Positions 11,987-63,468 of a DNA stretch of 64,000 bases are shown here, piece after piece. The stretch is taken from the IMG/VR virus record IMGVR_UViG_3300030503_000287. One strand, given 5' to 3'. The translations under genes were made by a program, and so were the position numbers. Numbering within the stretch: the stretch's first letter is position 1; each line of letters begins with the position of its first letter. Origin of the DNA: a virus. The notes beneath the pieces are model-generated. The model worked only from the letters and a program-made list of their open reading frames with translations, was not told the origin of the DNA and did no database searches.

Positions 11987-12015
11987 TTGACAACTATTCA
12001 AAAATCCTGTATAAT
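11987..12015 (+). promoter_or_regulatory. sigma70-consensus promoter
   Basis: TTGACA (11987-11992), 17-nt spacer, TATAAT (12010-12015), about 35 nt upstream of ATG 12051. Confidence 0.7.
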
Positions 12016-24185: not shown

Positions 24186-24372
24186 CTTGAATTAATTCTC
24201 CAAATTGCTCATGAGCTAACTCTATTACTTCATCAATATCTATTTTATCCACCCTGTAAACTTCTACATACAAACCTAAACGCCCCCAAGAAGTGTCAAA
24301 ACATTCTTGCTCTGCCGCCATTACGAATGCTTCAGCATCAAATTTGAATTTGAACTTAAACCGGAGATCCAT
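24175..24372 (-). CDS. hypothetical protein
   Basis: 65-aa ORF between the polymerase and the MTase. Confidence 0.45.
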   Translation of the reverse strand: MDLRFKFKFKFDAEAFVMAAEQECFDTSWGRLGLYVEVYRVDKIDIDEVIELAHEQFGELIQDET

Positions 24373-27344
24373 TATCTTTTCCTTATAATTACATTCGATT
24401 CAGCGTAGAACGCTTCACCTTGCCATGCGCCCTTGACTGCTACGAAGTCACCAGCTTGAATATTTCTAAATTTATCAGCCAGCGCAGGAATATGTTTCTT
24501 AGCAATACGAACCAAGATAGCCATATCAGGATCTTCCAGAACGAACTTTATGTGATCACTTCCAAAATCAACTACTGTAACATAACCTGCAACTGTCAGT
24601 CGTGACCACGGAGCACAATCTTTAAGTACACCAAGGCCACTTATTTGATTACGATCTCTTGCCTCTCTATCGCACTGCTTCATACTCGATATAGGGCACC
24701 ACGGAGCGAGTATTATTTGTTCATTTGGATCGGTGTCACCATTTGCTATCCCAAGCTTATCAATCTTTTTCTTTAAAGCTAAAGGAACAACATCAGAATG
24801 TAAGAAATTCTCCCACCCAGTATATGGTCCACCCTCAAGTATCTTATTGGCAGTCGCAGTTCCGATACTGAAGAGGTTGGAATATCCACCTATTAACACT
24901 CCCTCTCTTGGTGAGGAGAATGAGAATTTAGAATATCTTGGGTCTAACAATTCAACCTGTCCACCCATAAATTTAAACTCATTAATTACTGACTTTACAA
25001 CTGATGGGTCAGACTCCAATTGAAGGTATGCCTCATAAAACTGTGCAGGGAAATGAGTCTTTAGATAAAGCATATAGTAAGATATTAGAGCATACGTAAC
25101 TGCGTGGCTGAGATTGAAGCTGTAGAGTCCATGCGTAAGTATGGATACCCACCACTTTCCTATTTCTGCCTCTCGTACCCCGTTCTTAGTCGCACCCTCA
25201 TAAAACATATCTCTATATTGTTCTACAAACTCGACACCTGCTGACCCTGAAACACCCTTACGCAGCTTATGAACGTCCTTCCATTCAAAACCAGCCAACT
25301 CTCTCGCAAAACGCATTACTTGTTCTTGATATACCAATATACCGTATGTTGATTGTAGGATATCGGCTGCGATAGGGTGTAGACTGCTAAGATAGGCTTT
25401 GAATCGCGCTGGGGAAAGTTTGTTATTTTTGTATGTTTCTACCCAGTCGCCCGGTCCAGGTCGGCAGAGAGCGGATGCAGCTACTAGATCATCAAAAGTA
25501 TCAAGCCCTATCTCTTTAGATACTCTCAGCGCTGATGCACCATCTAGTTGAAAGACTCCGCTCATAAATCCTGATTTGGCCGTCACATAACTCTCAGCGT
25601 CGTTCAAGGGTAAGGAATGTAACCACTGAGTATCTTTACCTATGGCTCGTAGTGTGAGAGACAGAACATCAAGGGCCTCTACAGATAGGAAATCCATCTT
25701 TAAAAAGCCCATCTCAACTGCGCCTTTTTTATCTACACAGGCAATAGGCATTTTATCCTTATCATAAATGACCCCAATATGATTCTCAAGTGCATCTGGA
25801 CTAATTATGACTCCACAAGCATGTACAGAAGATTGGCGATACTGACCAATGATTTTCTCTACGATCTTCAATTGTGGATAGTTTGCCAAGACCGTTAATG
25901 CGGCTCTGTCTCTGATATGATCGAATGTTAAGGTATCTTCAGAGAGAGCATTGGACAAATCACCAAAGACAGAACGCGGAATGTCATAAGCGCCAGCAGC
26001 ATCCTGTAAGGCGCTCTTGGCCTTTAACTCCATGATATTAGCAAGTTGTGAACAGTTGTTGGCTCCGTAGATGTCATACACATGTTGAACAGCAAGATTG
26101 CGAACTCTCTTTTCAAAGTCAATATCAACATCTGGTGGGTCAGGCCGGTTGTCATCGTAGAAGCGTTCAAATGATAATTTGTGGTAAATAGGATCTGTCT
26201 CTGATGCTCCTATTAACCATAAAATACAACATCCCCCAGCACTACCACGACACATGACTAAGGAGGGTAGGGACTTCGCCCAATTTACAACTTCCCAAAT
26301 AGCAAGTATATAGTCACAAAAGCCTTTACGACGAATGACTTCGAACTCATGCTGAACACGTCTTACATAGCGTTCATCATTTATTACGTTTCTTCGCCCC
26401 AGTCCTTCAACAATTAATGTCCACAAAAATTGTTCAGATGTATGTGTCTCAGGCAGCCCCTTAAATACAAACTGAGTCGCTTTAGGAATTTCAACATTAC
26501 ACATATCTGCCAGCGTACCGGTATTATTGATGGCCTGTACTAATTCCTGCTCGGACGCATTAGGAGCGCATATTCTGGTCCGTTCCAACAATTCCTCAGC
26601 GCCACAGTAGTACTGAAAGTCAGGTAGTTTAATCTCTCGCTCTACACTATTAACTTTCTGGCGTGTACCGACAGACAACAACAAGTCTTGCGCTGGGTAA
26701 TCTTCTGGACGCGGGAAATGAGCATCAGACGTAACCACCATAGGAACCTGTAAATCACGAGCTATCTGAACAAGCCAAGGTAGGCTTGAATGAGAAATAT
26801 CAAGACCGGGTTCGGGGACAAGTTCTATATAGTAATGTTCGATCTGTGTTCTACGCTCATATACAAACTCATGAGCAGCTTGTGGATCTACATGGTTAAT
26901 AAGACGTGATGGATATCCACCAACACAACCACTAAGGACAAGGAGACCTTCTTGGTGTTGAGCTATTAAACCCCAGTCAATTCTAGGTTTATAATAAAAT
27001 CCATCAGTCCATGCCAACCTATTTAATTTCAGAAGATTTGAATAACCCTTCTGAGTCATGGCAAGAATTGTTACATGAGCATCAGACTTAGCTTTTAATC
27101 TTTCGATACCGCGCACTCGATCAGTGTGAACGTCTGTGATATAGAACTCAATACCAAAGATTGGCTTGATATCTGTCTTCTCAGCAGCTATTTTGAATGG
27201 TACATGGGAAAAACAGTTTCCATGATCAGTTATCCCTATGGCTTTATGACCTAATTCATTCGCTCTAGATAGTATTTGAATAGGCAAACCCATTCCGTCA
27301 AGCCACGAGTAAGTACTATGCCCATGAAGATTAACGAATACCAT
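24372..27344 (-). CDS. dnaE: DNA polymerase III alpha-type replicative polymerase
   Basis: 990 aa. N-terminal PHP domain (VNLHGHSTYSWLDG ... ITDHGN). Length and layout are typical of DnaE. Confidence 0.9.
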   Translation of the reverse strand: MVFVNLHGHSTYSWLDGMGLPIQILSRANELGHKAIGITDHGNCFSHVPFKIAAEKTDIKPIFGIEFYITDVHTDRVRGIERLKAKSDAHVTILAMTQKGYSNLLKLNRLAWTDGFYYKPRIDWGLIAQHQEGLLVLSGCVGGYPSRLINHVDPQAAHEFVYERRTQIEHYYIELVPEPGLDISHSSLPWLVQIARDLQVPMVVTSDAHFPRPEDYPAQDLLLSVGTRQKVNSVEREIKLPDFQYYCGAEELLERTRICAPNASEQELVQAINNTGTLADMCNVEIPKATQFVFKGLPETHTSEQFLWTLIVEGLGRRNVINDERYVRRVQHEFEVIRRKGFCDYILAIWEVVNWAKSLPSLVMCRGSAGGCCILWLIGASETDPIYHKLSFERFYDDNRPDPPDVDIDFEKRVRNLAVQHVYDIYGANNCSQLANIMELKAKSALQDAAGAYDIPRSVFGDLSNALSEDTLTFDHIRDRAALTVLANYPQLKIVEKIIGQYRQSSVHACGVIISPDALENHIGVIYDKDKMPIACVDKKGAVEMGFLKMDFLSVEALDVLSLTLRAIGKDTQWLHSLPLNDAESYVTAKSGFMSGVFQLDGASALRVSKEIGLDTFDDLVAASALCRPGPGDWVETYKNNKLSPARFKAYLSSLHPIAADILQSTYGILVYQEQVMRFARELAGFEWKDVHKLRKGVSGSAGVEFVEQYRDMFYEGATKNGVREAEIGKWWVSILTHGLYSFNLSHAVTYALISYYMLYLKTHFPAQFYEAYLQLESDPSVVKSVINEFKFMGGQVELLDPRYSKFSFSSPREGVLIGGYSNLFSIGTATANKILEGGPYTGWENFLHSDVVPLALKKKIDKLGIANGDTDPNEQIILAPWCPISSMKQCDREARDRNQISGLGVLKDCAPWSRLTVAGYVTVVDFGSDHIKFVLEDPDMAILVRIAKKHIPALADKFRNIQAGDFVAVKGAWQGEAFYAESNVIIRKR

Positions 27345-28835: not shown

Positions 28836-29335
28836 CCTAACACTCCTAAATCAAAAGGTTTCTCTATCTCTGTGAGCAATGCATCAACCAGACTTATATC
28901 TAACGTCCAATCTACAGTTGATCGCTGGCGGTACTTACTACTTGCATAAGTAATGTATTGTTGTGCTTGTTTGTAAGTCCATCCGTTAACTTTTGCTATA
29001 TGTCGCAAGCAAACAGGAACCATTGTAGGTCCTTCAATCACATTTGTTCGACCGATATGGTAGCACTTATGGCACAATGGACATACTGCCATTAACCGTA
29101 CTAGTTTCTGAATACCATTACTTTCATAGCTGAATAATTCGTGACACTCTACTGGATGTTCTGGCCCTACACCGCCACAAATCTCACAAACGTAACACGC
29201 CTTTCGATAACAATACCGTCGTAATTTATCCCAAATCTCTTGATCTACATGATTTCTAACATTCTCATAGAAGCTAGTTTTTGGTATAAGATCGATCTTT
29301 AATTTAGGATTCTTAAATATGTTGTTTGATTTCAT
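28832..29335 (-). CDS. zinc-binding HNH-like protein
   Basis: CYVCEICGG ... ECHELFSY ... CPLCHKCYH motifs. Confidence 0.45.
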   Translation of the reverse strand: MKSNNIFKNPKLKIDLIPKTSFYENVRNHVDQEIWDKLRRYCYRKACYVCEICGGVGPEHPVECHELFSYESNGIQKLVRLMAVCPLCHKCYHIGRTNVIEGPTMVPVCLRHIAKVNGWTYKQAQQYITYASSKYRQRSTVDWTLDISLVDALLTEIEKPFDLGVLG

Positions 29336-32244
29336 GATTGCGGGACCTCAAACGGAGGTCTTTCTATATATTCACGTAACCAAACCGCAAAAGCCGACGT
29401 AATTTCAAAAGCGTCTTTTCTACCTCGTGCTATTTGAATTCCTCTATTTAGATATAGCTGTTGAAGCGTTCTCCGTGCAAACATCTCTTGAGTAGGAGCA
29501 AGGAGTGTGAATGTGCGCTCTACAAATTCGTCCATACGTAATAGTTCCGCAGCGAAATCACGACCCCTACCACCCATATCTTCTTCAAATATACGATTGA
29601 TTTCTTGTAGGTTTATAATATCCGTATGTTCCACCTTAGTTCTGGAGTAGGTATCATAACCCATGATTGGTTTGTCGTACCACATACGGAATAATTCCCC
29701 AGCGGCGTGTACATGTTCAGGGCGAACGATTATGCTCTCGCCATCTTCACTGGCGCTAAAACACTGTGCAGCGACTGATACACTTACCTTCGCTACTTTT
29801 GTTCTTTGATCGGATGGTTCAACTAATGGCACTGTGGGAGTATAGGTTTCACACATCCATTTAGATAAGGCTATTACAGCTTGTTCTGCTTCAGGAGTGA
29901 ATGTAATTTGATCTGATTGCCTCGAATATATCCATGCGATTAATTGTTGAGATATATCCCTACCATAAATCGGTACAGTAGGTGGAGTCATATCATTCAA
30001 ATCATCTACCGAAACATCCTGTTGAGCAACTGCCATAGCGAAATCAAAACGGGCTATATCTTCAGGTTGTGTCACCAAGCGAGGAACTACTTCTATTACG
30101 TTATATCCGAGTTGATGTATAAGTTTTCCGACTCCTGGGTTTGCAAGCCAAGTGCATCGTACTCGTGCTCGAAATTGGGCCGACGCAGCCTTAGAGATAC
30201 GTACTGTACCATCGCTTCTCGTGCTAGAAAGCAACTCAAGGAGTCCAACACGACCGAACTTAGCAGCGGTAAATTCGTCAAAGCAAATTGCTCTATTATC
30301 TTGCTGAGGCATAATTCCTGGTATGACATAACGTTCTCCTGACTGAGCAGATTGTTCTACTGCACCTAAAATACCTGCTGGAGTTTGATGTTTACAGTCA
30401 ACAAACATACCAACTCCGAAATGTTCGGCCATCTTTTTATAAGATTGTGATTTTCCCGTGCGAGTATCTCCAACTACTAATATTTCTAACCAGCCATGAT
30501 CTACAATATTCCCAAGAAATGTAAAATGTAAAGCAGAGTGCCAGATAGTGCGATAGGCAAGATGAAGATCGAGGCGTTTTCTGATAAGGGTAGTACTATC
30601 AATCAAATCCTGAGCTACAGATTTTAATTTCATTATTACTGTTTCGTGACTAGTTGGTTTAAATACACACAAATCCTTATAGATGTCTGGAGTCATAATG
30701 AAAGAATCGATACCGACCGACATTGGTCTGGCCACATCTAGCATGGCTACAAGTTGTTGGTTCTGAGGGCGCGGGTAGACAAAACCTTCTACATCATATT
30801 GCATATTCTCTTCAAGTTTCCCGGTACGAGAAGGAATAATATAGACTTCATATCTATGACGATCTGTGGCTGTAATTTCACTGTCTAACGGCGCTGAGAG
30901 AATGGCTGGCTCGATATCGATAGCGTTTAGAATTTGAATTGTTACGTCCGGGCATTGTTTCGGTATTCCCTGAGCTTCTAACAACGCACGATGTTGTATG
31001 TCGTCGTGAACGCCAATTTGTTTTAAAGCATCGCTGGACCGAGGGTCAATATTGAATATGCCGTGACCACGAAAACTATCTCGCATAGGACAAAGAGTGC
31101 AATAACCATGCCCACGTGCAGGGCAATTCGCTTCGTAACTAGCAGCAATGGCATACGTTTTTTCAGAACGAGCATTGAGCCTAGCACGATACCCAACCCT
31201 ATGTCCAATATTGTTACTAGACATAGAATCGCCGTAATTAACAACCACAGGTTCAGTATCATAGGTGTCATTAAGTGTGGGGGCATCTTCTGCACTGTTG
31301 AGAATATTAACGATAGAATCACAGACGCCAGCCGTTTGGAACCCAAGACTGTACAAATAATAAATGTAGTCGGAAACGTCTGCATTACCTGGCCGATCTT
31401 CCCACTGAGGAAGTGTGCAAATATGTAATGATGCTACGTCTCTGTGTAAGCGCCGAGTGGATTCTTCTATAAAATGTTGACCAGCCGCGTCTGCATCGCC
31501 AAGAATATAGATATGTTTATTACGATACCAATTGCCTTCTGGAATTGGTGAACTGGAACCATCGGTTCCTGTAACAGCAGCAAATCCTAATGCCCTAAGT
31601 GATAAAGCATCAGGCTCCCCCTCAACCAGCAACAATGTCTGTTCGTTATATCCATCTATGGGGAAAAGGACGTTTGCGTGTAACCCCGTAACGTACCACA
31701 CCCATTTTGGGCGACCGCCAGGACGATACATTTTACAGTTAATAATTCGTCCCAGCGCATCAAATATTGGGAAAACATAACGGTCGTATTCGGCATCATA
31801 ACCAATTCTGTATCTGGCAATGACTTCTCTGGTCCAAGGTTTTGTTTCTTGTAGCCTTGTTATAAGTTGCGGATGGGCTTCTAGATAATTTTCCTTCTCC
31901 GCAATATAGAGTTCTGTGACAGGATTGACAACGTTGTGTTCAATCATTAGAGCATGTTCTGTCACTCTAAAATTAGGGACTGCCCTGCCACGCTCGTCAA
32001 ATTCCGTAGCTCTCATGATAGCTACAAACTGAACATAGTTTCCTGAGCGATCACAGTTCATACATCGCCAAAGACCGTTTGTTACATTAAATGCGAATGA
32101 AGGATTGTTATCATGTTCGTCTGGAAAAGGGGACCTTGCAGCCCTTTCTCCTCTAGAATTCGGCGCAGCTAGACCAGGTATCCATCTCTCATAAAGTTCT
32201 TCCCATCCTATTCGTTCCAGCGTTGTGCGTAATTGAGGATTCAT
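29332..32244 (-). CDS. primase-helicase fusion (Zn finger + TOPRIM + P-loop ATPase)
   Basis: 970 aa. WRCMNCDRSGNYVQF zinc finger. TOPRIM LLLVEGEPDALSL and ILGDADAAGQ. Walker A VVGDTRTGKSQ and Walker B ICFDEF. Confidence 0.8.
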   Translation of the reverse strand: MNPQLRTTLERIGWEELYERWIPGLAAPNSRGERAARSPFPDEHDNNPSFAFNVTNGLWRCMNCDRSGNYVQFVAIMRATEFDERGRAVPNFRVTEHALMIEHNVVNPVTELYIAEKENYLEAHPQLITRLQETKPWTREVIARYRIGYDAEYDRYVFPIFDALGRIINCKMYRPGGRPKWVWYVTGLHANVLFPIDGYNEQTLLLVEGEPDALSLRALGFAAVTGTDGSSSPIPEGNWYRNKHIYILGDADAAGQHFIEESTRRLHRDVASLHICTLPQWEDRPGNADVSDYIYYLYSLGFQTAGVCDSIVNILNSAEDAPTLNDTYDTEPVVVNYGDSMSSNNIGHRVGYRARLNARSEKTYAIAASYEANCPARGHGYCTLCPMRDSFRGHGIFNIDPRSSDALKQIGVHDDIQHRALLEAQGIPKQCPDVTIQILNAIDIEPAILSAPLDSEITATDRHRYEVYIIPSRTGKLEENMQYDVEGFVYPRPQNQQLVAMLDVARPMSVGIDSFIMTPDIYKDLCVFKPTSHETVIMKLKSVAQDLIDSTTLIRKRLDLHLAYRTIWHSALHFTFLGNIVDHGWLEILVVGDTRTGKSQSYKKMAEHFGVGMFVDCKHQTPAGILGAVEQSAQSGERYVIPGIMPQQDNRAICFDEFTAAKFGRVGLLELLSSTRSDGTVRISKAASAQFRARVRCTWLANPGVGKLIHQLGYNVIEVVPRLVTQPEDIARFDFAMAVAQQDVSVDDLNDMTPPTVPIYGRDISQQLIAWIYSRQSDQITFTPEAEQAVIALSKWMCETYTPTVPLVEPSDQRTKVAKVSVSVAAQCFSASEDGESIIVRPEHVHAAGELFRMWYDKPIMGYDTYSRTKVEHTDIINLQEINRIFEEDMGGRGRDFAAELLRMDEFVERTFTLLAPTQEMFARRTLQQLYLNRGIQIARGRKDAFEITSAFAVWLREYIERPPFEVPQS

Positions 32245-34212: not shown

Positions 34213-34540
34213 TTTCTGTTGATATTAAAAATACTTGATTTTCGAATGCTCCATTTTTGACACGTTTTGTAGTAGCTGCGGCAGCTATTTCATGAAAACC
34301 AAAAGTTGCTTTCATTAAGGCATGTAAAACAGTATACATATCTACCAACTCTTCAATAGTGTGATGCTCAGCGAATTCATTAGTCTCTTCAATCAATTTT
34401 GTGATAAGACAATCTACAAACTCTCTTCGCTCCAGAGTACGAGTTCTACAGGTATTGCCATTTTGTTTTATAATATCAGGAATATTATCTCGAACAAGTT
34501 TGTTGTGAATTGTTGTTGTTTTAGACATTCTGGGTCTCAT
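34196..34540 (-). CDS. MazG/HisE-like nucleoside triphosphate pyrophosphohydrolase
   Basis: KLVRDNIPDII ... LIEETNEFAE ... EELVDMYTVLHAL. Confidence 0.6.
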   Translation of the reverse strand: MRPRMSKTTTIHNKLVRDNIPDIIKQNGNTCRTRTLERREFVDCLITKLIEETNEFAEHHTIEELVDMYTVLHALMKATFGFHEIAAAATTKRVKNGAFENQVFLISTESGTDA

Positions 34541-36440
34541 ATATTGAATCTAGATGTGCCAACACCACCTTTATATCCCATGGATTGATTGTTGATGGCA
34601 TAGTCTTAGAACATTCATTTGGGTATCTTTTACGGTTCTGGCCCCAACCTGTGAAGTTACCACTTTTACTTTCACGATTCTTCAAAGCAATAGCTTGATG
34701 TTCAGTTGGTGAGGCATGAGGGGGGTTGTTTGCCAATAACCCATCATTTAACCCTAAATCCTTTTCATAACTTCGCGAACCATCGTGACCGAGAACTGAG
34801 ACTCTGGCACATCGGCCAGCAGAGACAGATATGAGAGATTCTAATGAACGCAATTCATATCCCCATTCATCAGTGAGGATTCCGCAGTACATCATAGTCT
34901 CAACTTCTTCGTCACTGATATAAGGTAAGTGCCAGTTATGAGTTTCTATTTTCTTTGGAATCGATTCATCATATGCTTCCATTGCAAGAAAAGAAGGTAG
35001 TTGTATTTCAGGTTGAGCCAATTCATGACATCGCAGCGTAAAATAATTCTGCCAATCTGTGGCAGTCGCAATTATGGTTTGCCATGCAAATGGCTCTATA
35101 AGACGATTTGCAATGGACTTGTGGACGTTCAAATCTTTTGATAGGTAATTTGCAGCAAGCACCATTTGATCTCTGGCGTTTAACCATGCTCTAATTGCTA
35201 AACGTTCATCTTCAACACTTAATGGTTCTCCACCCTGCATACCTTTTTTGTTAGTCGCCCACACAAGAGGGATAAAAGGAGTTTCCATTACCTGTTTAAT
35301 TTTACGTTCAACAGGAATAGCACGACTGGATGCACTGTTCCTACTATTATGAACTACAATACCATTCGCGAAAAAGTTTGGAAATTCTCCGGCAATTTCA
35401 AGATCATATGTGTCTTCAACTCCACGATAATTGATTGAATCAACTGTTATGAAGTCAACATAATATTCAAATCCTGTTTGCCAACCTTGAACTTCGTGCT
35501 CTTTTCTATGGCAACCTTCACAAAGTAGGGTAACATTGTTTTTGTCGGCTACCAAATCAGGTCGTAAATAACGTGGTTGAATATGATGAATGCGCAGTTG
35601 ATCAACAGATCCACATTTCTGACAACAACCCATTTCAGCTATAAGTTGAAGCTTGGCTTTTCTGTTCCACATAATATAACTATGTTGTTCTGCTCTTGTA
35701 AAACGATGAAGTTTTTCTGTTTCTGGTTTTCCCAATCGTCGCACGGCTATTCTGGTAGTGCCTGGAATAATATTCTCGATTGTAACATAACCAGTATCTG
35801 TCCAAATTTTATGATCTTTACTTCCGGCTATTTGGTGTCTTCCGGCCTTTACTTCAAAAATTTCTTTACGACCTGAATAGAAACAATCAACAACAGTTGA
35901 ATATTGTATTTTGTTTGTATGTTCATTGATCTGTCGGATCGTCATGTCTTTGAGTCGATATTGAATTGGTTGGTTATTAACTCGTGGACGCTCGTAAAAC
36001 TTCTTAAAATCAGACCCCAACACCAGCCATTGCCGACCATCCAATTCTTTCACGGCTTTTAACAAACCAGATCTACAAGATCCATTTAGTCCAGAATAAT
36101 TGCTGAACCCAAATATGTTTTTGAGTTCCATTGTAGTATAAACACTATTATCATCCAATAACGACATATCGAGTATTTTATGGTTTTTTGACGGTCTTGG
36201 CTGTGCTCCTTCAGTCCATTTACGATAGAAATTCTCGATTGAGATAGGATACTTGGTGGCACTACTTTCACGTTTTTGCGCTCTTGGGCTACTGAATTCT
36301 AATATAGAATCTCCAGCGAGACAAAGAGATCTGTGTGTGTTAAATTCACATAATACAATACGAGGTATTACGAATTCAAAGGTAGTGATCCGTGCTCCTG
36401 CTGATGATATAGAATCCCTGATTATTTTTGCTGAATACAT
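34521..36440 (-). CDS. thyX: flavin-dependent thymidylate synthase (ThyX-like) interrupted by an intein
   Basis: Exteins join to EFNTHRSL|SRNSASSRAIPVERK (ThyX RHR...S....S.R motif). The C-terminal half is collinear with ThyX. Confidence 0.8.
   Translation of the reverse strand: MYSAKIIRDSISSAGARITTFEFVIPRIVLCEFNTHRSLCLAGDSILEFSSPRAQKRESSATKYPISIENFYRKWTEGAQPRPSKNHKILDMSLLDDNSVYTTMELKNIFGFSNYSGLNGSCRSGLLKAVKELDGRQWLVLGSDFKKFYERPRVNNQPIQYRLKDMTIRQINEHTNKIQYSTVVDCFYSGRKEIFEVKAGRHQIAGSKDHKIWTDTGYVTIENIIPGTTRIAVRRLGKPETEKLHRFTRAEQHSYIMWNRKAKLQLIAEMGCCQKCGSVDQLRIHHIQPRYLRPDLVADKNNVTLLCEGCHRKEHEVQGWQTGFEYYVDFITVDSINYRGVEDTYDLEIAGEFPNFFANGIVVHNSRNSASSRAIPVERKIKQVMETPFIPLVWATNKKGMQGGEPLSVEDERLAIRAWLNARDQMVLAANYLSKDLNVHKSIANRLIEPFAWQTIIATATDWQNYFTLRCHELAQPEIQLPSFLAMEAYDESIPKKIETHNWHLPYISDEEVETMMYCGILTDEWGYELRSLESLISVSAGRCARVSVLGHDGSRSYEKDLGLNDGLLANNPPHASPTEHQAIALKNRESKSGNFTGWGQNRKRYPNECSKTMPSTINPWDIKVVLAHLDSIYETQNV
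35346..36323 (-). mobile_element. intein with HNH homing-endonuclease domain (326 aa)
   Basis: Starts CLAGDSILEF. Internal CCQKCGSVDQLRIHHIQ ... NNVTLLCEGCHRKEH. Ends TYDLEIAGEFPNFFANGIVVHN with +1 Ser. Confidence 0.8.
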
Positions 36441-36693: not shown

Positions 36694-37055
36694 TGGTGGA
36701 GGCGGGGAGAGTCGAACTCCCGTCTTCAGTACCCATATCTCAATATATCCTACAAGCATAGTTCGTATTTATAATGTTAGATTTTCTACGAACAAACCAT
36801 CTAACAAGTTTGAATCTATTTTCCTAGCATCCAAGATTCTGAGTGATGCTTAATCAAAGAAACGTAAGGTTTCAATCCCCACTACTTCCGAAGAAGTAGT
36901 GCAATCAGACTTAGGCGGCTGCAGCGAAAGCGACAGGGCGAACGGTCTTAAAGGTTGTGTTTGCGTTTGTTTTTAGGTCGGATTCGTATACTGGCCAACG
37001 ACCATCCAGTGCTTGCTTATTGAGTATCCTGATCTGAATCGATACCTATCGCCCC
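36694..37055 (-). ncRNA. ssrA: tmRNA (one-piece)
   Basis: 5' GGGGGCG pairs with 3' CGCCUCC-A-CCA, including G3:U70. T-arm GGGAG-UUCGACU-CUCCC. Tag ORF from GCA 36964 encodes ANTTFKTVRPVAFAAAA-TAA. Confidence 0.9.
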
Positions 37056-37064
37056 CGTATCTTT

Positions 37065-38195: not shown

Positions 38196-38263
38196 ATGGA
38201 ACGAAAGGAATCGAACCTTCACTACCTGCATGCTGGGTGTGCTCCCAACTACACTACACCCCA
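38196..38263 (-). ncRNA. degenerate tRNA-like gene with truncated anticodon arm
   Basis: 68 nt. Acceptor UGGGGUG/CGUUCCA (three G:U pairs). D-arm GUGU-AGUUGGGA-GCAC. T-arm GAAGG-UUCGAUU-CCUUU. Only 17 nt (CCCAGCAUGCAGGUAGU) where the anticodon arm plus variable loop should be. Confidence 0.4.
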
Positions 38264-43302: not shown

Positions 43303-43377
43303 TGGGTCCCTCGGCTGGATTCGGACCAGCATTAGCGCCTTCAAAGGGCGTTTTCCTGCCAATTAAAAGACAAGGGA
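43303..43377 (-). tRNA. tRNA-Gln (UUG) with atypical T-loop
   Basis: 75 nt. Acceptor UCCCUUG/CGAGGGA. Anticodon arm ACGCC-CUUUGAA-GGCGC. T-arm GCUGG-UCCGAAU-CCAGC (C at position 55). CCA encoded. Confidence 0.6.
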
Positions 43378-53920: not shown

Positions 53921-54718
53921 TTAAGCTGCGATCATAGCCTCAACTAATTTTACACAGATTTCATTGATTGTATCCGCCGACCGTGCCAACCGTGCCGACT
54001 CTGCCGACCGTGCCGACTCTGCCGACCATGCCGCCAACCGTGCCGACTCTGCCGACCGTGCCGACTCTGCCGACCATGCCGCCAACCGTGCCGACTCTGC
54101 CGACCGTGCCGACTCTGCCGACCATGCCGCCAACCGTGCCGACTCTGCCGACCGTGCCGACTCTGCCGACACTGCCGCCAACCGTGCCGACTCTGCCGAC
54201 CGTGCCGACTCTGCCGACCATGCCGCCAACCGTGCCGACTCTGCCGACCGTGCCGACCGTGCCGACCATGCCGCCAACCGTGCCGACCATGCCGACACTG
54301 CCGACCGTGCCGACTCTGCCGCCAACCGTGCCGACTCTGCCGACTCAACATCAACTATGGGGGGCAATTCCCGTAGTTTTTTAGCCTCTTCTGGTAACTT
54401 TACAAACTCAAAAGCAACTGCAGCGAATTGCCGTACTGCAAAATCCGCACAAATATACGCCCGCTTTTGTATTTTATTATCGTTAACAGTTCCAATCAAT
54501 TTCGATAATAGTGGTTTTATCCACTTATCACGTTCAGCATTGTTTGGTAGATTGTCATTCCAAACCCTGCAAAAAGATGCAATTACCGGACATACACAGG
54601 AAGGATGGTCTGAATATGGCTCATTTGCAATATAAGATGCAGCTTCCATAACACACATACCGTCTTCAATAGATTTGTGGCTGCCTTTCGAAAGAGTGAT
54701 TTCTTCTATTTTTATCAT
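53921..54718 (-). CDS. protein with conserved Cys-containing N-domain and 16-aa tandem repeats
   Basis: 265 aa. N-terminus GMCVMEAASYIANEPYSDHPSCVCPVIASFCRVWND. C-terminal half is repeats of AWSAESARSAESARLA. Confidence 0.65.
   Translation of the reverse strand: MIKIEEITLSKGSHKSIEDGMCVMEAASYIANEPYSDHPSCVCPVIASFCRVWNDNLPNNAERDKWIKPLLSKLIGTVNDNKIQKRAYICADFAVRQFAAVAFEFVKLPEEAKKLRELPPIVDVESAESARLAAESARSAVSAWSARLAAWSARSARSAESARLAAWSAESARSAESARLAAVSAESARSAESARLAAWSAESARSAESARLAAWSAESARSAESARLAAWSAESARSAESARLARSADTINEICVKLVEAMIAA
53986..54347. repeat. 48-bp tandem repeat, about 7.5 copies, in-frame within the CDS
   Basis: Unit ccaaccgtgccgactctgccgaccgtgccgactctgccgaccatgccg starts at 53986, 54034, 54082, 54130, 54178, 54226, 54274 and 54322. 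The first three copies are identical. About 67% GC against about 38% flanks. Confidence 0.95.
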
Positions 54719-57184: not shown

Positions 57185-57438
57185 ATTTTAACCTCCTTAT
57201 AATTCTGACTTCCCGGTCCAGTTCCGGCTGCGTATCGAATCGTTTGATTAACACGAGTCATTACGTCTGATAGTGTATATGGCCCTCCGCATCCTACTAA
57301 AGAACCGCTGGTGAACTCTCGGTAATCGTACAGGTTATTGACTACACGGTGCCAAATTTCAATACGATATTTAGACCCGCGAGTCTCATAGGCTTTTATG
57401 AGAGTGTCTTCAGGATTAGTGTGCTCATTAATTGTCAC
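57181..57438 (-). CDS. hypothetical protein
   Basis: 85-aa ORF. Confidence 0.5.
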   Translation of the reverse strand: MTINEHTNPEDTLIKAYETRGSKYRIEIWHRVVNNLYDYREFTSGSLVGCGGPYTLSDVMTRVNQTIRYAAGTGPGSQNYKEVKI

Positions 57439-57631
57439 GACAATACACTCCCTTCAAAAACATATTGTTGGGTAATCTATGTGCTTTGTTTTTCATCTCA
57501 GCAAGTACAAGACATCCTACTATTTGCCCTTGTGTCAAAGTGGGATTGTTGGCGATAAGTGCATCAACACTCATGGGAATTTTATCGTTTAACTGCAACA
57601 AAATATGATCTATTGCTTCATTTTGTGTCAT
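57428..57631 (-). CDS. hypothetical protein
   Basis: 67-aa ORF, first gene after a consensus promoter. Confidence 0.5.
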   Translation of the reverse strand: MTQNEAIDHILLQLNDKIPMSVDALIANNPTLTQGQIVGCLVLAEMKNKAHRLPNNMFLKGVYCRDN

Positions 57632-58044: not shown

Positions 58045-58722
58045 TTACTTAAAATAGTATGTATCAGATACACACTTGTTGGTTTCCAATAATTGACTTC
58101 GTAGTTCAGAAGGAATCAACAATATTGTTTTAATAAAATCATTGTTGATTGTGATATTGTTTGATGTCTGATTTCTACGAAATTCCATACTTCGCCATGC
58201 AAAACCACAATCTCTTCCATCAGATTTTCCATATATTGTCATATCAGCCTTGAAGTTTTGAAAGTCGCTGATTGTGTAGTGGTTTTGTGACAACCAGCTA
58301 GAGTCAAGGATTATATTATCAATATCTAATTGGTTGCTTTGGATGTCTCTAAATATTGCATTGAAAATATTTGTGTTTGTCGGGTTTTTGTTAAAACCTA
58401 GATGATAAGAGAACTCGTATACTGGAATAGGTTTCGGTGTTTTTACCTTGGGTGTTCTTGGTGTTGACTGTATGAGTTGAAGGATATACGAGAGTTTGCG
58501 CTGCGCTTCAATCATAAGCAATCCCTTATAAACTTCAGGCAGTTCGTCGCCCGACTTCTTCAGATTACAAGGTTGACAAGCAAGAGTTAGATTTAGTAGG
58601 TCGTCAGTACCGCCTGTACACTGAGGATGTATATGTTCAATCTGATCAGCGCCCTCCCTGCCACAATACTGGCAGCGGCCTTTGTACGCCTTGATTATAG
58701 ATGCTCTTAATTTTTGTTCCAT
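58045..58722 (-). CDS. free-standing HNH endonuclease
   Basis: CQYCGREGADQIEHIHPQCTGGTDDLLNLTLACQPCNLKKSG. Confidence 0.8.
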   Translation of the reverse strand: MEQKLRASIIKAYKGRCQYCGREGADQIEHIHPQCTGGTDDLLNLTLACQPCNLKKSGDELPEVYKGLLMIEAQRKLSYILQLIQSTPRTPKVKTPKPIPVYEFSYHLGFNKNPTNTNIFNAIFRDIQSNQLDIDNIILDSSWLSQNHYTISDFQNFKADMTIYGKSDGRDCGFAWRSMEFRRNQTSNNITINNDFIKTILLIPSELRSQLLETNKCVSDTYYFK

Positions 58723-58985: not shown

Positions 58986-59495
58986 TTACTCTGACTGTTT
59001 TTCTTTCCACTCTAATTTGTTGGCCAGTTTGAACAAATCTGTTGAAGTGAGATTGGTGATTAACTTACCTAGAGATCCATTTATTGATGGAATATGTCTA
59101 GAGAACAATATGAGTTGGTAGTCGTAAGGATTTTTACCGTAAATTTTGTTGTTGTTTATTATTACAGGTATTAAATATTCATGTTTGTTATTCTCAAAAT
59201 ATTTCAATATTGTTGCGATATTGTAAAGATAAGAAGTTGTTGGACCGGTTCCAGATTTAGAACATATACAATCAATTATGAATGAATAATTATAGTTATA
59301 ATTAGAACATTTAGATTCTATATATTCTAAAACATAAAACTGTCTATGTTTATTTGTTGCGTTTCTATATTCTCTGTTTTCTTGTGTTAATGATCGACTA
59401 ACTTTATAATAATCTGAATGTTCATATATTGTAAAATTTCCATTTATTAAAATTTGGTTTATGTCATCAATTAATATTTTTGCTGTTTTTCTCAC
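58986..59495 (-). CDS. hypothetical Asn/Tyr-rich protein (low-GC island)
   Basis: 169-aa ORF, about 28% GC. Confidence 0.5.
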   Translation of the reverse strand: MRKTAKILIDDINQILINGNFTIYEHSDYYKVSRSLTQENREYRNATNKHRQFYVLEYIESKCSNYNYNYSFIIDCICSKSGTGPTTSYLYNIATILKYFENNKHEYLIPVIINNNKIYGKNPYDYQLILFSRHIPSINGSLGKLITNLTSTDLFKLANKLEWKEKQSE

Positions 59496-59499
59496 TTAA

Positions 59500-60492
59500 T
59501 TATTCTTTCTCAAATGGTCTGAAAAGATCTTTTAGGATATCTGGAGTTTCTTCCGATGGTCTATCATTAAACAATTCTTTTACAATGTCGGTCGTAGAAG
59601 TAGGAGTTATAGGTGTTGTTTCGTGTCGAAGTTTTATTCTAAGTTCTTGTTGTTTGATTACACTGAGGGTTGATGGTTTTGGCAATTGTTGATTTTTAAT
59701 CTTCAGATTGTCGCTAAGATTTTTATTAATAAGTGTTTTTGGTCTGTACTGTTTGTAATTATATGTTTTTATTTTATGAGGTTGTAAGTGAGTTTCATTT
59801 AAGCATTCGATTAGGGGTAGGTCTGAATCTATTGGTACATTTCCATTATCGAATGTTAATTGATTCCATGTCGAAGGAATAAACGGTCTTTCAATATCCG
59901 GTACAACAATTAAGGTATAGGTTTGTTTTTTGTCTCTGGCTCGAAGATGATGGTAGTCAGTAAGAAAAACATAAATTCCCATACGTTTAATTATTGGTTG
60001 ATCAAGATAGTTGAGAATTTTAACAAGATAGTGAAGGTATGTTTTACCAACAGTAGGTGGCCTGTAATTTATTTTAACAGCCGTTAGGTTATTCGATGAT
60101 GGTGTCGATCTAATAGGCTCGGCATAAAACCCTGGAAGTATTACCCCAGTGGTGTTATGTTTACTGTTAATATTAGACATCTCTAGTGATGGTTCTGGTT
60201 GAATAGAAGGTGTTGGTGTTTTTAACAAGAGTAGGTTAACAGACATTTCTGTTACAGGATATTGAAAACACTGTTCGGGTTTTTCAAGAATTGATAAATA
60301 TTCCTGTGCTCTTTTAAAGGCATATGGTGCCCTAAGAAGGTGATATATATATGAATTGTTTATTTCATCCAATGAATTATTGAATGTTGGAGTATCGGCA
60401 GGAGTATATTGGTAAAACGAATCTGTGTGAATAACAAATTCATTATCACTATTGTTATCATCTGTACTTGGTGGTTGTTTTAATTTTGGCAT
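59500..60492 (-). CDS. hypothetical protein (low-GC island)
   Basis: The ORF track starts at TTG 60549. The first ATG is 60492. Weak collinear similarity to the 61531 gene. Confidence 0.5.
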   Translation of the reverse strand: MPKLKQPPSTDDNNSDNEFVIHTDSFYQYTPADTPTFNNSLDEINNSYIYHLLRAPYAFKRAQEYLSILEKPEQCFQYPVTEMSVNLLLLKTPTPSIQPEPSLEMSNINSKHNTTGVILPGFYAEPIRSTPSSNNLTAVKINYRPPTVGKTYLHYLVKILNYLDQPIIKRMGIYVFLTDYHHLRARDKKQTYTLIVVPDIERPFIPSTWNQLTFDNGNVPIDSDLPLIECLNETHLQPHKIKTYNYKQYRPKTLINKNLSDNLKIKNQQLPKPSTLSVIKQQELRIKLRHETTPITPTSTTDIVKELFNDRPSEETPDILKDLFRPFEKE

Positions 60493-60560
60493 GGAGTATA
60501 ACCTTTGGATTTGTGACACTATTATAATGAGTGATTCAAAAAATGTCAATGGTGGTAGTT

Positions 60561-60632
60561 GATAGTTGGTTTGATAGTTGGTTTGATAGTTGGTTTGATA
60601 GTTGGTTTGATAGTTGGTTTGATAGTTGGTAA
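60561..60632. repeat. 12-bp tandem iterons, 6 copies (gatagttggttt)
   Basis: Copies start at 60561, 60573, 60585, 60597, 60609 and 60621, with a degenerate copy just upstream. The core ttgatagtt recurs at 60863 and 61461. Confidence 0.95.
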
Positions 60633-60862
60633 TCCTTTATATCCTATTCTTGTATTGATACCTGTAAAAATGGCTCTGTATGGTCAGGAGATAGTATAAA
60701 TGGTCGTATAGTGTGTAAATTGTTGTTAATCGTGTGTGCGCGGACGTGAGGCGGCAAAGAATGGCATTGTGGATTAATGTCGTTGGTCTTTAATTTTCCA
60801 CCTAGATGATTTGTGATTAGAAAACTGTATTGAAAATATTGAAAATAGGGAAAATGTTATTG

Positions 60863-61530
60863 TTGATAGTTAACGATACATTTATTGAGAATAAAATCTA
60901 TATTTCATATGAACGATTTTTTTTAAAAAGTTTAATAAGTTAAGTTATGTATCAACAAGTGTTAGTAAATGAGAGATTTGATAAGTGTGTTGTATGACAC
61001 ACTCTTGACGGGGTTACACACGTAGAGACTGTAAAACGTAATATTATTGAGAAATAGATTTTTATAAGTTAGAGAAAAGTAGAATCTAAAAAATGGAAAA
61101 GATCATATGAAATATAGATTGTATATATAGGGTTAAAGATACCCCCCCGGGGTATATATATATGATATTAAGTTCTTTTTTATTATATATATAATATATA
61201 TATTATATATACAAACAAATGTTCCAATGTATATATATATCTTGCTTTTACACCCCATATTCGGTTTTCTCTATACTATAACCTACTCTTCAATAATTAT
61301 TCTTCTTTTGTTTCACCCATTTCTTCCTATTTCCTATCAATTTTTAAATCTATATTTCATATTTAATTGATTTCTTGATTTTGTAAAATCTATAAGGTCT
61401 ATATATATAAGCACTCCAAGAGTGTGTCACGTAACACACTTATTGATTGATTGTCGTTTGTTGATAGTTATTAACAATTAAATAGTGCTATTTCATCTTG
61501 TTATGATTGTTGTTCATATGAAATAAATAT
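60863..61530. other. AT-rich non-coding region with nested inverted repeats (origin-like or packaging-like)
   Basis: 17-bp IR at 60896-60912 / 61103-61119, with further copies at 61348 and 61514. 27-bp IR at 60981-61007 / 61417-61443. Palindrome ataccccccc-ggggtat at 61139-61155. (TA)n-rich tract at 61153-61250. Confidence 0.5.
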
Positions 61531-62655
61531 TTATTTTCGTTTTGGAAGTTTGCGTTTTGATAAATCTGAGAGTGAACCAATAGAGCGCTCTTTAGCAAGC
61601 ATTGACGAGGGTTCCCATGTGGATATGGAGGTTAAGGATGGAATTCCGTGCTCGTATCTCGCAGCGAAGGATTCATGGCAAATTAAGATTTCATCACGCC
61701 GCTCAGTTTTTTCTGTAAATGAGCGATATGGTTTTCTAATTTTTGGAGAAGAAATATGGGATTTTGAATTTTCAAATAAAATTGAAAATGCTTCAGTCAT
61801 GCGAACAGGTGAGGATATGGGATTTTTATTTATATCGAAAACTAAAACGAGATTTTTTGAAAAACCATTCTTGATATTATTACGTTTTGCATTCTCAATA
61901 TTATCAGAAAAATTATTAGAAGAATATGAAACATACCCCAGCGTTCGATACCAGTCAAAAACTTCATAATATTCAGGATCTTTAAAATCTTGAATAAGCG
62001 ATATCGTATTATGGTTAAAACTATTTTGATTGCGATATCGTACTCTGGTAAGGTTCCATCTCTGTAGTTCAGAGAACGCTACACGCGGCTGTTTATAGTC
62101 ACTGTCTGGCACTATGTGCCATGTAGCTCTAAGCCGGTGGGAAATGATTTGGGCATAGAACCAGTTCGCATTCAGGGTACTGTCAGTATATTGGATACAT
62201 TCTGATATGGTTAAAAGAGGATTGTCTTTCTGTTCTTGTTCGGTAAGGTGATAGCGCGGTGGGTGAATACGTTGCTCAGTGTCAGACTTCTGAATTTTAA
62301 CGATATTAAATTCAGAAGGACAAGTCGATGGAATATTTACATTAAATAATTTTGGAATAGGTGTTAATAGGATATGGTCCTTAATGAGAGAGTCGTCATC
62401 GTTTAAGGGGGTGGTATCTGGAGGCGTCCAATGATCAGGGTTAAGAAGATAGTACTTGTCTAATTCAATATTGGAAAGAAGATCAGACTTAGCCTGAAGG
62501 CGTTCTAAACGACCATTTTCCGCCAGCGCCGATTGATACTCACGTGACCATAAGGACGGTATAGAACGCTCTAGATTAGGCGTAGAGCGTTGTTCTCGCG
62601 TGTATTTGATCTCCAACGCACGTAGTCTATTAAGTTCTGTCTGTTTGTGTGTCAT
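61531..62655 (-). CDS. hypothetical protein (low-GC island)
   Basis: 374-aa ORF. Motifs RIHPPRY and HRLRATWHIVPD parallel KINYRPP and HHLRA...LIVVPD of the 59500 gene. Confidence 0.55.
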   Translation of the reverse strand: MTHKQTELNRLRALEIKYTREQRSTPNLERSIPSLWSREYQSALAENGRLERLQAKSDLLSNIELDKYYLLNPDHWTPPDTTPLNDDDSLIKDHILLTPIPKLFNVNIPSTCPSEFNIVKIQKSDTEQRIHPPRYHLTEQEQKDNPLLTISECIQYTDSTLNANWFYAQIISHRLRATWHIVPDSDYKQPRVAFSELQRWNLTRVRYRNQNSFNHNTISLIQDFKDPEYYEVFDWYRTLGYVSYSSNNFSDNIENAKRNNIKNGFSKNLVLVFDINKNPISSPVRMTEAFSILFENSKSHISSPKIRKPYRSFTEKTERRDEILICHESFAARYEHGIPSLTSISTWEPSSMLAKERSIGSLSDLSKRKLPKRK

Positions 62656-62734
62656 GTTTTATTATGACATAACAAACCAAATCCCTCAGCGTACAGAAAT
62701 TATAGTTTATGCGCATAAGTAGATATAAGATAGA

Positions 62735-62762
62735 TAAAAAAGACCAGCCATTTCTGGCTGGT
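62735..62762 (-). terminator. intrinsic terminator
   Basis: Minus strand reads ACCAGCC-AGAAAU-GGCUGGU followed by CUUUUUUAUC, just after the stop at 62769. Confidence 0.7.
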
Positions 62763-62768
62763 TATGGT

Positions 62769-63005
62769 TTATGCGCACAAAATTTTACGCACTCCCATTG
62801 AAGTATTAAGGAGTAGGTATTTAGTTTCTCTATTTGTTTTAATTTTAGAAATTTTATCTTTTGCATCCTGAACGTTATCAGCATAAATAGATATTTTTCT
62901 GTATGAACCGCCGTGTGTACCTAATGTTTCGATTAACACTTCATATGACTTCTTAATCATTTTGGATATCCTTTCCATATATACCATGCTCCGAATATTA
63001 ACCAT
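62769..63005 (-). CDS. hypothetical protein
   Basis: 78-aa ORF. Several candidate starts. Confidence 0.45.
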   Translation of the reverse strand: MVNIRSMVYMERISKMIKKSYEVLIETLGTHGGSYRKISIYADNVQDAKDKISKIKTNRETKYLLLNTSMGVRKILCA

Positions 63006-63057: not shown

Positions 63058-63468
63058 TTAGTAATCTATCCTTATCTTTCCTCTGTAGATATAGGGATCT
63101 TGTTCGTCAGCTTTATGACTGGCGAGAGTTAATCTGTCCCTCTGTTCTTGACTGTAGTAGTCATCAGAACGGTCCCAGAAGCCCACTCCGTGTCGATTAC
63201 GAGTTAACCAGTAGTCATGACCAGCCTGTTCTAAGGTAGCTCCACACTCACCTAAATCTTCAGAATTCGCAGATTGGAATGTTGCACAATCCTTTATGAT
63301 CAATTTCAAAGTGCGTTTTTCAATATCTAATATTGAGTAATTCGCATCCATAGGTTCGGGATTATGGATTGTGACATTATCTACTTTACTCCAATCCTGA
63401 CTTGACCATAACATTGCAACACAATATGCGGTTGTGAATTTATCTAACTCTAAGCCTTTAACTTGCAT
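63058..63468 (-). CDS. hypothetical protein
   Basis: 136 aa with GHDYWLTRNRHGVGFWDR motif. Confidence 0.55.
   Translation of the reverse strand: MQVKGLELDKFTTAYCVAMLWSSQDWSKVDNVTIHNPEPMDANYSILDIEKRTLKLIIKDCATFQSANSEDLGECGATLEQAGHDYWLTRNRHGVGFWDRSDDYYSQEQRDRLTLASHKADEQDPYIYRGKIRIDY

Follow-up and report, generated by a model that had tools for sequence, protein, structure and literature searches.

What, if anything, is the function of about 1 kb of repeat-rich DNA that lies between two phage genes and codes for no protein? The question is raised by positions 60493-61530 of a 64,000-nucleotide stretch of viral DNA (IMG/VR record IMGVR_UViG_3300030503_000287), hereafter called the window, which belongs to an uncultured, long-tailed phage. 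A first-pass annotation, made from the letters of the window, had described the region as an origin-like or packaging-like element with iterons, nested inverted repeats and a (TA)n tract. Our analysis indicates that it is a sequence-unique, repeat-rich cis-acting control or origin region, and it is the best candidate for the replication start site of this phage. Specifically, we tentatively propose, with a probability of roughly 0.4, that a dyad-symmetric origin of replication is joined here to a promoter bearing a variable repeat array. Reading the region as an origin is plausible and the best interpretation available, and it is unproven.

The region is truly non-coding, as the annotation had stated. 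Its longest stop-free run, 77 codons, is at random expectation (shuffle median, 63), and no credible small open reading frames (ORFs) were found between 60493 and 61530. The genes on either side are both ORFans on the minus strand, encoding 330 amino acids (aa) downstream and 374 aa upstream. Inverted repeats are in excess: the window has 14 pairs of 16 nucleotides (nt) or more, and six of them fall entirely inside the region, 1.6% of its length, while another two reach into it with a single arm. Folded as single-stranded DNA, positions 60880-61540 gave z = -4.8 relative to shuffles. All the repeats named in the first-pass annotation were recovered, each within 0-2 nt of the position given for it, and to these we add a perfect promoter, polymorphism of the tandem array, a palindrome of about 650 bp, a quantified minimum of duplex stability and a compositional island.

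The proposed cis-acting element would consist of two joined parts, the palindrome (60887-61538) and a promoter with its array (60521-60630). The first part would act as a dyad-symmetric array of about 650 bp, comprising four copies of a 17- to 18-nt repeat (R17), iteron cores and two hairpins with 7-bp stems, centred on a TA tract of about 100 bp. Its features are as follows.

60887-61538: imperfect palindrome of about 650 bp, with arms 60887-61169 and 61226-61538
60860-60872, plus strand: iteron-core 13-mer TTGTTGATAGTTA
60894-60914, plus strand: R17 copy 1 (outer left), AAATCTATATTTCATATGAAC, containing the near-palindrome TTTCATATGAAC
60944-60958, minus strand: inverted iteron core GTTATGTATCAACAA, mirror partner of 61458-61466 and a perfect 9-nt block
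60981-61007: left hairpin element, ATA-AGTGTGT-N6-ACACACT-CTTG
61043-61129, plus strand: purine-rich inner left arm, partly complementary to pyrimidine-rich 61265-61297
61103-61120, minus strand: R17 copy 2 (inner left)
61139-61155: GC-rich stem-loop palindrome ATACCCCCCCGGGGTAT (ATACCCC-CCC-GGGGTAT), at the edge of the TA tract
61152-61251: TA-rich tract, 14% GC, palindromic over 61154-61240 (78%), candidate unwinding element
61240-61345, plus strand: pyrimidine-rich inner right arm
61346-61362, plus strand: R17 copy 3 (inner right), 17/17 identical to copy 1
61417-61443: right hairpin element, CAAG-AGTGTGT-N6-ACACACT-TAT, overlapping a weak terminator-like stem on the minus strand
61458-61470, plus strand: iteron-core 13-mer TTGTTGATAGTTA
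61512-61532, minus strand: R17 copy 4 (outer right), GTTCATATGAAATAAATATTT, overlapping the stop codon of the upstream 374-aa gene

The arms of the palindrome align with a Smith-Waterman score of 128, against 78.7 +/- 8.7 for shuffles, and are 61% identical over 338 columns. Perfect blocks stand in them in mirror order, namely the R17 core (14 nt), the iteron core TATCAACAA (9 nt), the hairpin halves (11 and 13 nt) and ATAGATTT (8 nt), whereas between the blocks the arms are just 51% identical. That the mirror order was kept for three motif types while the background decayed to 51% argues for selection on the sites and not for a recent neutral duplication.

R17 occurs four times, in alternating orientation, where 0.22 copies are expected by chance. 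The annotated perfect 17-bp inverted repeat and its further copies at 61348 and 61514 correspond to these four sites; taken as 18-mers, the first two (60895-60912, plus; 61103-61120, minus) are perfect and the later two (61347-61364, plus; 61514-61531, minus) have 2 mismatches. The inner pair (61105-61120 and 61347-61362) is complementary at 16/16 positions across 226 bp that include the stability minimum, and the outer pair (60894-60914 and 61512-61532) forms 21-nt inverted repeats that are 90% complementary. CATATG, the centre of the R17 palindrome, is found at 3 sites against 0.3 expected. The imperfect 27-bp inverted repeat (60981-61007 and 61417-61443) is 89% complementary and extends to 46 nt at 76%; both of its arms carry AGTGTGT-N6-ACACACT, the internal 7-bp hairpins of the earlier description. 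The iteron core TTGATAGTT, reported to recur at 60863 and 61461, lies there within identical 13-mers, and with the inverted copy added here, the 9-nt core of the tandem 12-mers is common to three dispersed sites (60860, 60944 and 61458).

Duplex stability and DnaA boxes were scanned over 72.6 kb, that is, the window and a further locus of the same phage (L007). Whether measured over 50, 100 or 200 bp, the stability of this DNA is lowest in the TA tract (z 4.0-4.5), in line with the annotated (TA)n-rich, easily melted stretch of about 100 bp, and the central GC palindrome at 61139-61155 is present as described. The GC-rich 11-mer CCCCCCCGGGG is embedded in extremely AT-rich DNA with repeated sites on its flanks. 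As in dyad-symmetric origins, inverted R17 copies bracket an AT-rich, easily melted segment, and the outer motifs follow in mirror order. No DnaA box (TTWTNCACA) was found in the region and only 2 in the 72.6 kb, which speaks against a classic iteron origin and fits initiation that is independent of host DnaA.

The region is also unique in sequence. By megablast and blastn against 50,697 phage records and 72,556 plasmids, it returned nothing except one 68-nt chance match, and the 12-mer, R17 and hairpin motifs occur nowhere else in the window. A dimer of the 12-mer had 0 matches in 185,579 species genomes and hit two unrelated microsatellites in metagenomes; the hairpin pattern had 0 matches in the same genomes and was found in IMG/VR only in the same phage. 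The R17 18-mer appeared in three other viral contigs of public collections, each time as an isolated, chance-level match. A known structured RNA family was ruled out, as no Rfam covariance model matched: positions 59000-63000 gave just one sub-threshold chance match, outside the region, and the scan of the whole window returned only a transfer-messenger RNA (tmRNA) and tRNAs.

The phage carries replication genes of its own. They come first in its block of minus-strand genes and encode a DHH phosphoesterase, an exonuclease, a DNA methylase, DnaE, a primase/MCM-like fusion, AAA_24, thymidylate synthase and an SNF2 helicase. Two of them bear directly on the proposal.

24372-27344, within the minus-strand block: DnaE polymerase
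29332-32244, minus strand: 970-aa fusion of a DnaG-type primase (CHC2 zinc ribbon and Toprim) with an MCM-like P-loop helicase

The fusion of a DnaG-type primase with an MCM-like helicase is an unusual combination for a bacterial virus. Since the phage has its own primase-MCM-like helicase, DnaE, AAA_24, exonuclease and SNF2 helicase, it needs an origin or loading site, and no other repeat-rich or AT-rich non-coding stretch was found in or near the replication module. Mirror-ordered sites in a decayed palindrome, on the easiest-melting DNA of a phage with its own replisome, are the reason why a replication origin is ranked first here.

Under this proposal, an initiator would occupy the iteron-core and R17 sites that mirror each other in the two arms, the TA tract would then open, and two copies of the DnaG-primase/MCM-like helicase would load head to head, followed by bidirectional synthesis by the phage DnaE polymerase. 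The same protein or a second one, bound to the 12-mer array, could couple expression of the 330-aa gene to origin occupancy, much as Rep autoregulation does at plasmid origins. The sites, the unstable tract, the promoter, the copy-number variation and the phage's replisome genes are shown; binding of proteins to the sites, their identity and the start of replication here are inferred. To our knowledge, hardly any uncultured phage has a known origin, and no phage with a primase/MCM-like helicase has had its origin mapped. A bolder version, which we regard as improbable, is that the palindrome is a bacterial-virus origin working on a logic like that of archaea and eukaryotic viruses, with mirror-image initiator sites around an unwinding element and a loaded double hexamer, based neither on DnaA nor on iterons. 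In that version, the array would tune firing or copy control, and a Gly-poor ORFan would be a new origin-binding protein.

The second part of the element lies at the downstream end of the region. Its features, with two further promoters of the same class and a second short tandem repeat, are listed here.

60549-60521, minus strand: perfect sigma-70 promoter, TTGACA at 60549-60544, 17-bp spacer, TATAAT at 60526-60521, 12/12 matches
60559-60630, plus strand: six tandem 12-mers TTGATAGTTGGT (ACCAACTATCAA on the transcribed strand), 6.0 copies with 100% matches in Tandem Repeats Finder (TRF)
60828-60855, plus strand: 9-bp tandem repeat TATTGAAAA, 3.1 copies in TRF
11987-12015, plus strand: further 12/12 promoter, just upstream of gene 12051-12446 (plus)
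57686-57658, minus strand: further 12/12 promoter, just upstream of gene 57428-57631 (minus)

The promoter at 60549-60521 stands 9 bp from the array end, measured to its -35 hexamer, and 28 bp from the ATG (60492) of the 330-aa gene, and it is predicted to drive that gene (59500-60492) as its first gene. Only three promoters in the window match TTGACA-17-TATAAT at 12/12 positions. All three are intergenic and point into genes, so that the perfect-promoter class is real in this phage and its host employs canonical sigma-70 promoters. The six tandem units had been correctly placed beside the start of the 59500 gene, in a phase (gatagttggttt from 60561) whose sixth unit ends in "aa". On the coding strand, A makes up 50% of the 12-mer and G 0%, by count from the sequence. 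When up to 2 mismatches are allowed, it has 17 matches in the window, against 7.8 +/- 2.8 in shuffles. The array is separated from the TA tract by about 520 bp; the dispersed copies of its core lie nearer.

The number of 12-mers is 6, 6, 6, 3, 3 and 4 in independent assemblies that are 99.9-100% identical elsewhere. With perfect units and copy-number polymorphism among near-identical genomes, the array fits the definition of a variable-number tandem repeat (VNTR), and a variable tandem repeat beside a strong promoter is a better description than "iterons". The classic origin layout claimed in the first-pass annotation holds for its anatomy and its easily melted tract and is weakened as a "classic iteron" arrangement: the 12-bp array is VNTR-like and has a promoter beside it, DnaA boxes are absent from the region and no initiator was recognised. 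A second hypervariable repeat, perfect (GCATAG)n at L007 5006-5080 (about 67.58-67.65 kb, just outside the window), has 12, 12, 9, 11, 5 and 9 units and immediately precedes the AGGAG ribosome-binding site of a hydrophobic 41-aa ORF at about 67.6 kb. One full-length contig breaks beside this array.

These features of the promoter also suit a somewhat unlikely alternative, in which the region is a transcription-control region between two early gene blocks. The hairpins and the GC stem-loop would stop or attenuate read-through from the 374-aa gene, R17 (TTTCATATGAAC) would provide operators for a dimeric regulator, the perfect promoter would restart transcription, and the variable 12-mers upstream of the -35 hexamer would tune or phase-vary its strength. 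The 12/12 promoter is correctly placed for the 330-aa gene at its 9-bp distance from the array, which spans about -45 to -116 (taking the start site to be about 7 nt downstream of the -10 hexamer), the usual zone of activators and UP elements. The excess of CATATG-centred R17 palindromes, the differing array copy number among near-clonal genomes, the second variable repeat just upstream of another early gene's ribosome-binding site and a terminator-like stem at 61424-61412 are likewise consistent with it. However, 1 kb of DNA and a 650-bp palindrome far exceed what a terminator, operator and promoter need, the stems are without U-tracts, and no convincing promoter stands beside any R17 site (best, 9/12). 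The extreme TA tract and the mirror order of the motifs are also left unexplained. A regulator that was considered is the LexA/S24-type repressor encoded just past the window, next to a second non-coding region.

L007 2390-4172, about 68.5-70.3 kb: divergent non-coding region of 968 bp and a LexA_DNA_bind/Peptidase_S24 repressor gene

The control region of this repressor contains no R17-like site, which also counts against the transcriptional alternative, and a link between R17 and the repressor was rejected.

Returning to the replication origin, several observations weigh against it. The 12-mers are contiguous and identical at a period of 12 bp, out of helical phase, and their copy number changes among otherwise near-identical assemblies; since the unrelated (GCATAG)n repeat varies likewise, slippage alone may account for the array. 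One variant of the phage also has a deletion in the palindrome.

60885-60989: 105-bp segment missing in one variant (JGI 3300031233 / IMGVR_UViG_3300031233_000080), seen by assembly alignment

This deletion takes out the outer-left R17 together with the inverted iteron core and cuts the left hairpin in half; its junction, as read from the sequence, shows a 3-nt microhomology (TTG). No recognisable replication initiator was identified, both neighbouring genes being ORFans: neither protein has a family match, the 330-aa protein having none in Pfam, PHROG or NCBIfam even at E = 10, and their AlphaFold2 models have a predicted local distance difference test (pLDDT) score of 31 (330 aa) and 34 (374 aa), too poor to judge a fold. 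The region lies 28 kb from the helicase-primase gene. The second non-coding region of about 1 kb, divergent, with several TTGACA promoters and located at about 68.5-69.5 kb, is an alternative origin site, and the sequence examined covers all but about 21 kb of the genome. The GC skew flips locally at about 61150 and was rejected as an origin marker, the sign change being limited to a low-GC island at 57.9-62.9 kb and reverting beyond it. Finally, no diverged relative was found in any collection searched and the sampled population is clonal; no single-nucleotide polymorphisms are visible in the region among the assemblies, a population too clonal for this to carry meaning.

The island and the two genes flanking the region bear on the next explanation.

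59500-60492, minus strand: downstream ORFan, 330 aa, Gly 1.5%, Ala 2.1%
61531-62655, minus strand: upstream ORFan, 374 aa, Gly 1.3%

With 330 and 374 codons, compared with shuffle maxima of 169 and 202, both ORFans are clearly held open by selection. Neither has a homologue in libraries of 5.8 G and 1.84 G proteins, where the 330-aa protein returned only self-matches, and IMG/VR contains only a fragment of the same phage. The two proteins share only a 34-residue match (E = 0.017), on which paralogy was rejected. The island at 57.9-62.9 kb has a GC content of 29-36%, compared with about 40%, and a reversed GC skew (C > G on the coding strand), and its genes are one for an HNH endonuclease and three ORFans. 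In the two large ORFans, Gly makes up 1.3-1.5% and Ala 2-3.5% of residues, and G stands at 0.19-0.20 of first codon positions against 0.31-0.35 in ordinary phage genes. A 29-nt stretch of the region (61025-61053) has an inverted copy, 83% identical, at 61868-61896 inside the 374-aa ORF, which hints at a local rearrangement of the non-coding DNA with the ORFan. The nearest conserved gene encodes a 136-aa protein (63058-63468, PHROG 1915) whose homologues occur in unrelated phages with no comparable locus, one (L026) without notable repeats and another (L027) with a different, GC-hairpin-rich non-coding region. The latter, at L027 2640-3822 (JGI 3300049048, a 95,855-bp contig), is a 1.18-kb non-coding region adjoining the homologue's gene, with about 20 GCCCC-N(2-4)-GGGGC mini-hairpins in both orientations, counted by eye.

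In view of this setting, the region could be, beyond its promoter, a functionless by-product, in which slippage made the tandem repeats and an old inverted duplication decays in a recently acquired AT-rich island. We consider this unlikely. It is consistent with the position of the region in a 5-kb compositional island of ORFans and an HNH endonuclease gene, with the 105-bp deletion tolerated in one population and with the rearrangement suggested by the 29-nt inverted copy; the tandem repeats, being perfect, hypervariable and A-rich on the coding strand, also resemble those of Borg elements (PMC9879509). Neutral decay, however, should not spare the same motifs twice, and perfect blocks of 14-18 nt persist in four copies in arms that have decayed to 51%.

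A packaging signal, genome terminus or DNA-injection stop, where a terminase or ejection-arrest factor would read the symmetric repeats and act near the GC palindrome, is very unlikely. The 11-mer CCCCCCCGGGG in its AT-rich, repeat-flanked setting suits such a site, as do the several short contigs that terminate inside the region. Yet these contigs stop at different repeats (60601 and 61106), as assembly-graph breaks would, and in full-length contigs of 97.4-97.7 kb, assembled from different samples, the breaks fall at about 17.2, 54.1 and 67.7 kb (converted coordinates). These positions are unrelated, which fits circular or permuted assembly and lends no support to the packaging site or genome end offered as an alternative in the first-pass annotation. 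A terminase was not found in the 76.8 kb surveyed for gene content, and the tape-measure gene at the start of the window puts the head and packaging genes upstream, far away. The injection-stop site of phage T5 is defined by eight DnaA boxes, and the region has none.

There is a slim chance that the array is a partition centromere of the parC or tubC type, at which an adaptor bound to promoter repeats would autoregulate the downstream operon of a plasmid prophage. Six contiguous 12-bp direct repeats stand 9 bp from a -35 hexamer and are followed by the 330-aa gene and a 169-aa gene, a layout of repeats, promoter and two genes that resembles parC-parM-parR and the 12-bp repeats of tubC; in addition, the 76.8 kb showed no integrase, and the LexA/S24-type repressor is encoded just past the window. 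The 330-aa protein, however, is only 1.5% Gly, shows no Walker or phosphate-binding motif by inspection and has no actin, tubulin or ParA match at E = 10. Likewise, the 169-aa protein has no ribbon-helix-helix or helix-turn-helix match. Neither downstream protein matches an NTPase or adaptor family, and both have too little glycine for nucleotide-binding loops. The palindrome and TA tract are left unexplained.

The region might also be a miniature inverted-repeat transposable element (MITE) whose ends would be the 21-nt inverted repeats (60894-60914 and 61512-61532), or else a multi-inversion switch acting on the four R17 copies. In favour of this are terminal-like repeats that are 90% complementary, subterminal motifs in mirror order, an AT-rich interior and the alternating site orientation that is a trait of shufflons. 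It is already largely refuted by copy searches and barely credible: no second copy was found in the window, the 185,579 species genomes or IMG/VR, the R17 matches in three other viral contigs are single and at chance level, no target-site duplication is apparent in the flanks by inspection, no recombinase was recognised, and the region has the same orientation in all nine assemblies (7 spanning it and 2 entering it). Each of these last three explanations (packaging or injection stop, centromere, MITE or inversion switch) thus fails at least one tested defining feature. Two further identities were rejected: a type III toxin-antitoxin repeat RNA, in that the 12-mer array lies upstream and not downstream of the promoter and 12-mer units are too short for such RNAs, and a protelomerase target, in that the 3-nt loop of the central palindrome is asymmetric and no protelomerase was seen.

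The rest of the genome gives the setting of the region. Full-length assemblies of the phage measure 97,421-97,766 bp and were recovered repeatedly, from several JGI, ENA and Logan metagenomes. None of 50,697 deposited phage genomes is a near relative, and any homologue in them of the phage's DnaE-like polymerase is at most 31% identical to it. The window starts with tail and lysis genes on the plus strand, including a 2,027-aa tape-measure protein, Laminin_G-type fibre proteins and a GH108 lysin; from about 16.2 kb to its end, every gene is on the minus strand. The replication block is followed by the tmRNA and five tRNAs and then by dozens of small unknown genes.

36694-37056, minus strand: full-length tmRNA, Rfam 109.7 bits, ARAGORN tag peptide ANTTFKTVRPVAFAAAA
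37570-38263 and 43303-43377, minus strand: five tRNAs, four by ARAGORN (Leu, Phe, Trp, Gln) and the fifth by Rfam (38196-38263)

The phage may be temperate, with its LexA/S24-type repressor gene near 68.5-70.3 kb. It holds several signatures of selfish endonucleases: an HNH endonuclease segment (residues ~245-323) before the ThyA domain of the 639-aa thymidylate-synthase ORF (34521-36440, minus), a Hint (intein-type) domain in a 398-aa ORF adjoining the lysin (12447-13643, plus) and a free-standing HNH gene at 58045-58722. Another repeat, a 48-bp unit in 7.5 copies (95% matches, about 50% GC), occupies 53985-54344 inside a 265-aa ORF (53921-54718, minus) in surroundings of 36-38% GC, and one 97.5-kb contig breaks within it.

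If the origin proposal holds, the region would provide a DNA substrate for studying how a primase/MCM-like helicase is loaded in bacteria, as well as a sequence handle toward replicons for the host of this phage. The copy-number polymorphism of the 12-mer and of the second repeat forms a natural series bearing on whether tandem repeats serve phages to modulate early-gene expression. If the region is merely a decaying duplication in an acquired island, it would be of local interest only.

How does the region compare with known systems? Self-loading helicases of mobile elements are reported to recognise origins of short repeats, apparently bound as two hexamers, and in staphylococcal pathogenicity islands (SaPI) and staphylococcal cassette chromosome (SCC) elements, the origin adjoins the helicase gene directly, downstream (PMC7581432). 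By analogy, the SaPI Rep-ori and SCCmec Cch2 sites may be likened to the region in their short repeated sites, proposed two-hexamer complex and element-encoded primase and helicase. They differ in that the SaPI and SCC origins use direct iterons of 5-6 nt, whereas the candidate binding sites here are 17-nt sites in inverted pairs and a separate 12-mer array, and in that the helicase-primase gene (29332-32244) is 28 kb off, with the next gene overlapping its end.

Iteron-based theta origins share with the region direct repeats beside the promoter of a downstream gene, dispersed copies of the core and an AT-rich stretch in the same non-coding DNA. Classical iterons, as in P1 oriR, pSC101, R6K, F and lambda ori, are 17-22 bp long, spaced by about 22 bp and slightly divergent. 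Whereas such origins have at least three repeats of ~17-22 bp at a helical spacing of ~21-23 bp, here, perfect 12-bp units adjoin one another and differ in number among genomes, some 520 bp separate the array from the TA tract, and DnaA boxes, which many such origins have, are missing. An adjacent, autoregulated rep gene for a winged-helix initiator is also typical of these origins, and the 330-aa downstream protein is not recognisable as Rep.

The injection-stop (iss) region of phage T5 is kept across 25 relatives and holds eight ordered DnaA boxes within the terminal repeat (bioRxiv 10.1101/866236). Both are large untranslated stretches in the early region of a large phage with a long tail, and both are dense in repeats, inverted repeats and palindromes. 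Unlike the T5 site, the region has no DnaA boxes, no sign of terminal repeats and no relatives found.

For the 12-mer array, and for it only, the likeness is to the repeats of bacterial contingency loci and to Borg elements, which are archaeal extrachromosomal elements whose perfect, recently formed and rapidly evolving tandem repeats are A-rich on the coding strand (PMC9879509). Shared traits are perfect units, changes in number within a population, an A-rich and G-poor coding strand, an intergenic site near a gene start and further tandem repeats in the same genome. In contrast, Borg repeats have no known link to promoters, and the 12-mer core recurs singly in an ordered palindrome, beyond what slippage alone would give.

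Among dyad-symmetric origins, the simian virus 40 (SV40) core origin, oriS and oriL of herpes simplex virus (HSV) and the archaeal arrangement of an unwinding element between two origin recognition boxes (ORB-DUE-ORB) serve as the comparison. The region is larger, at 650 bp, and has no sequence similarity to them, and no origin-binding protein like Orc1/Cdc6, T-antigen or UL9 was found in the window. The likeness is one of design: in all of them, inverted sites flank an AT-rich unwinding element within a larger imperfect palindrome, in company with an MCM-like or related hexameric helicase.

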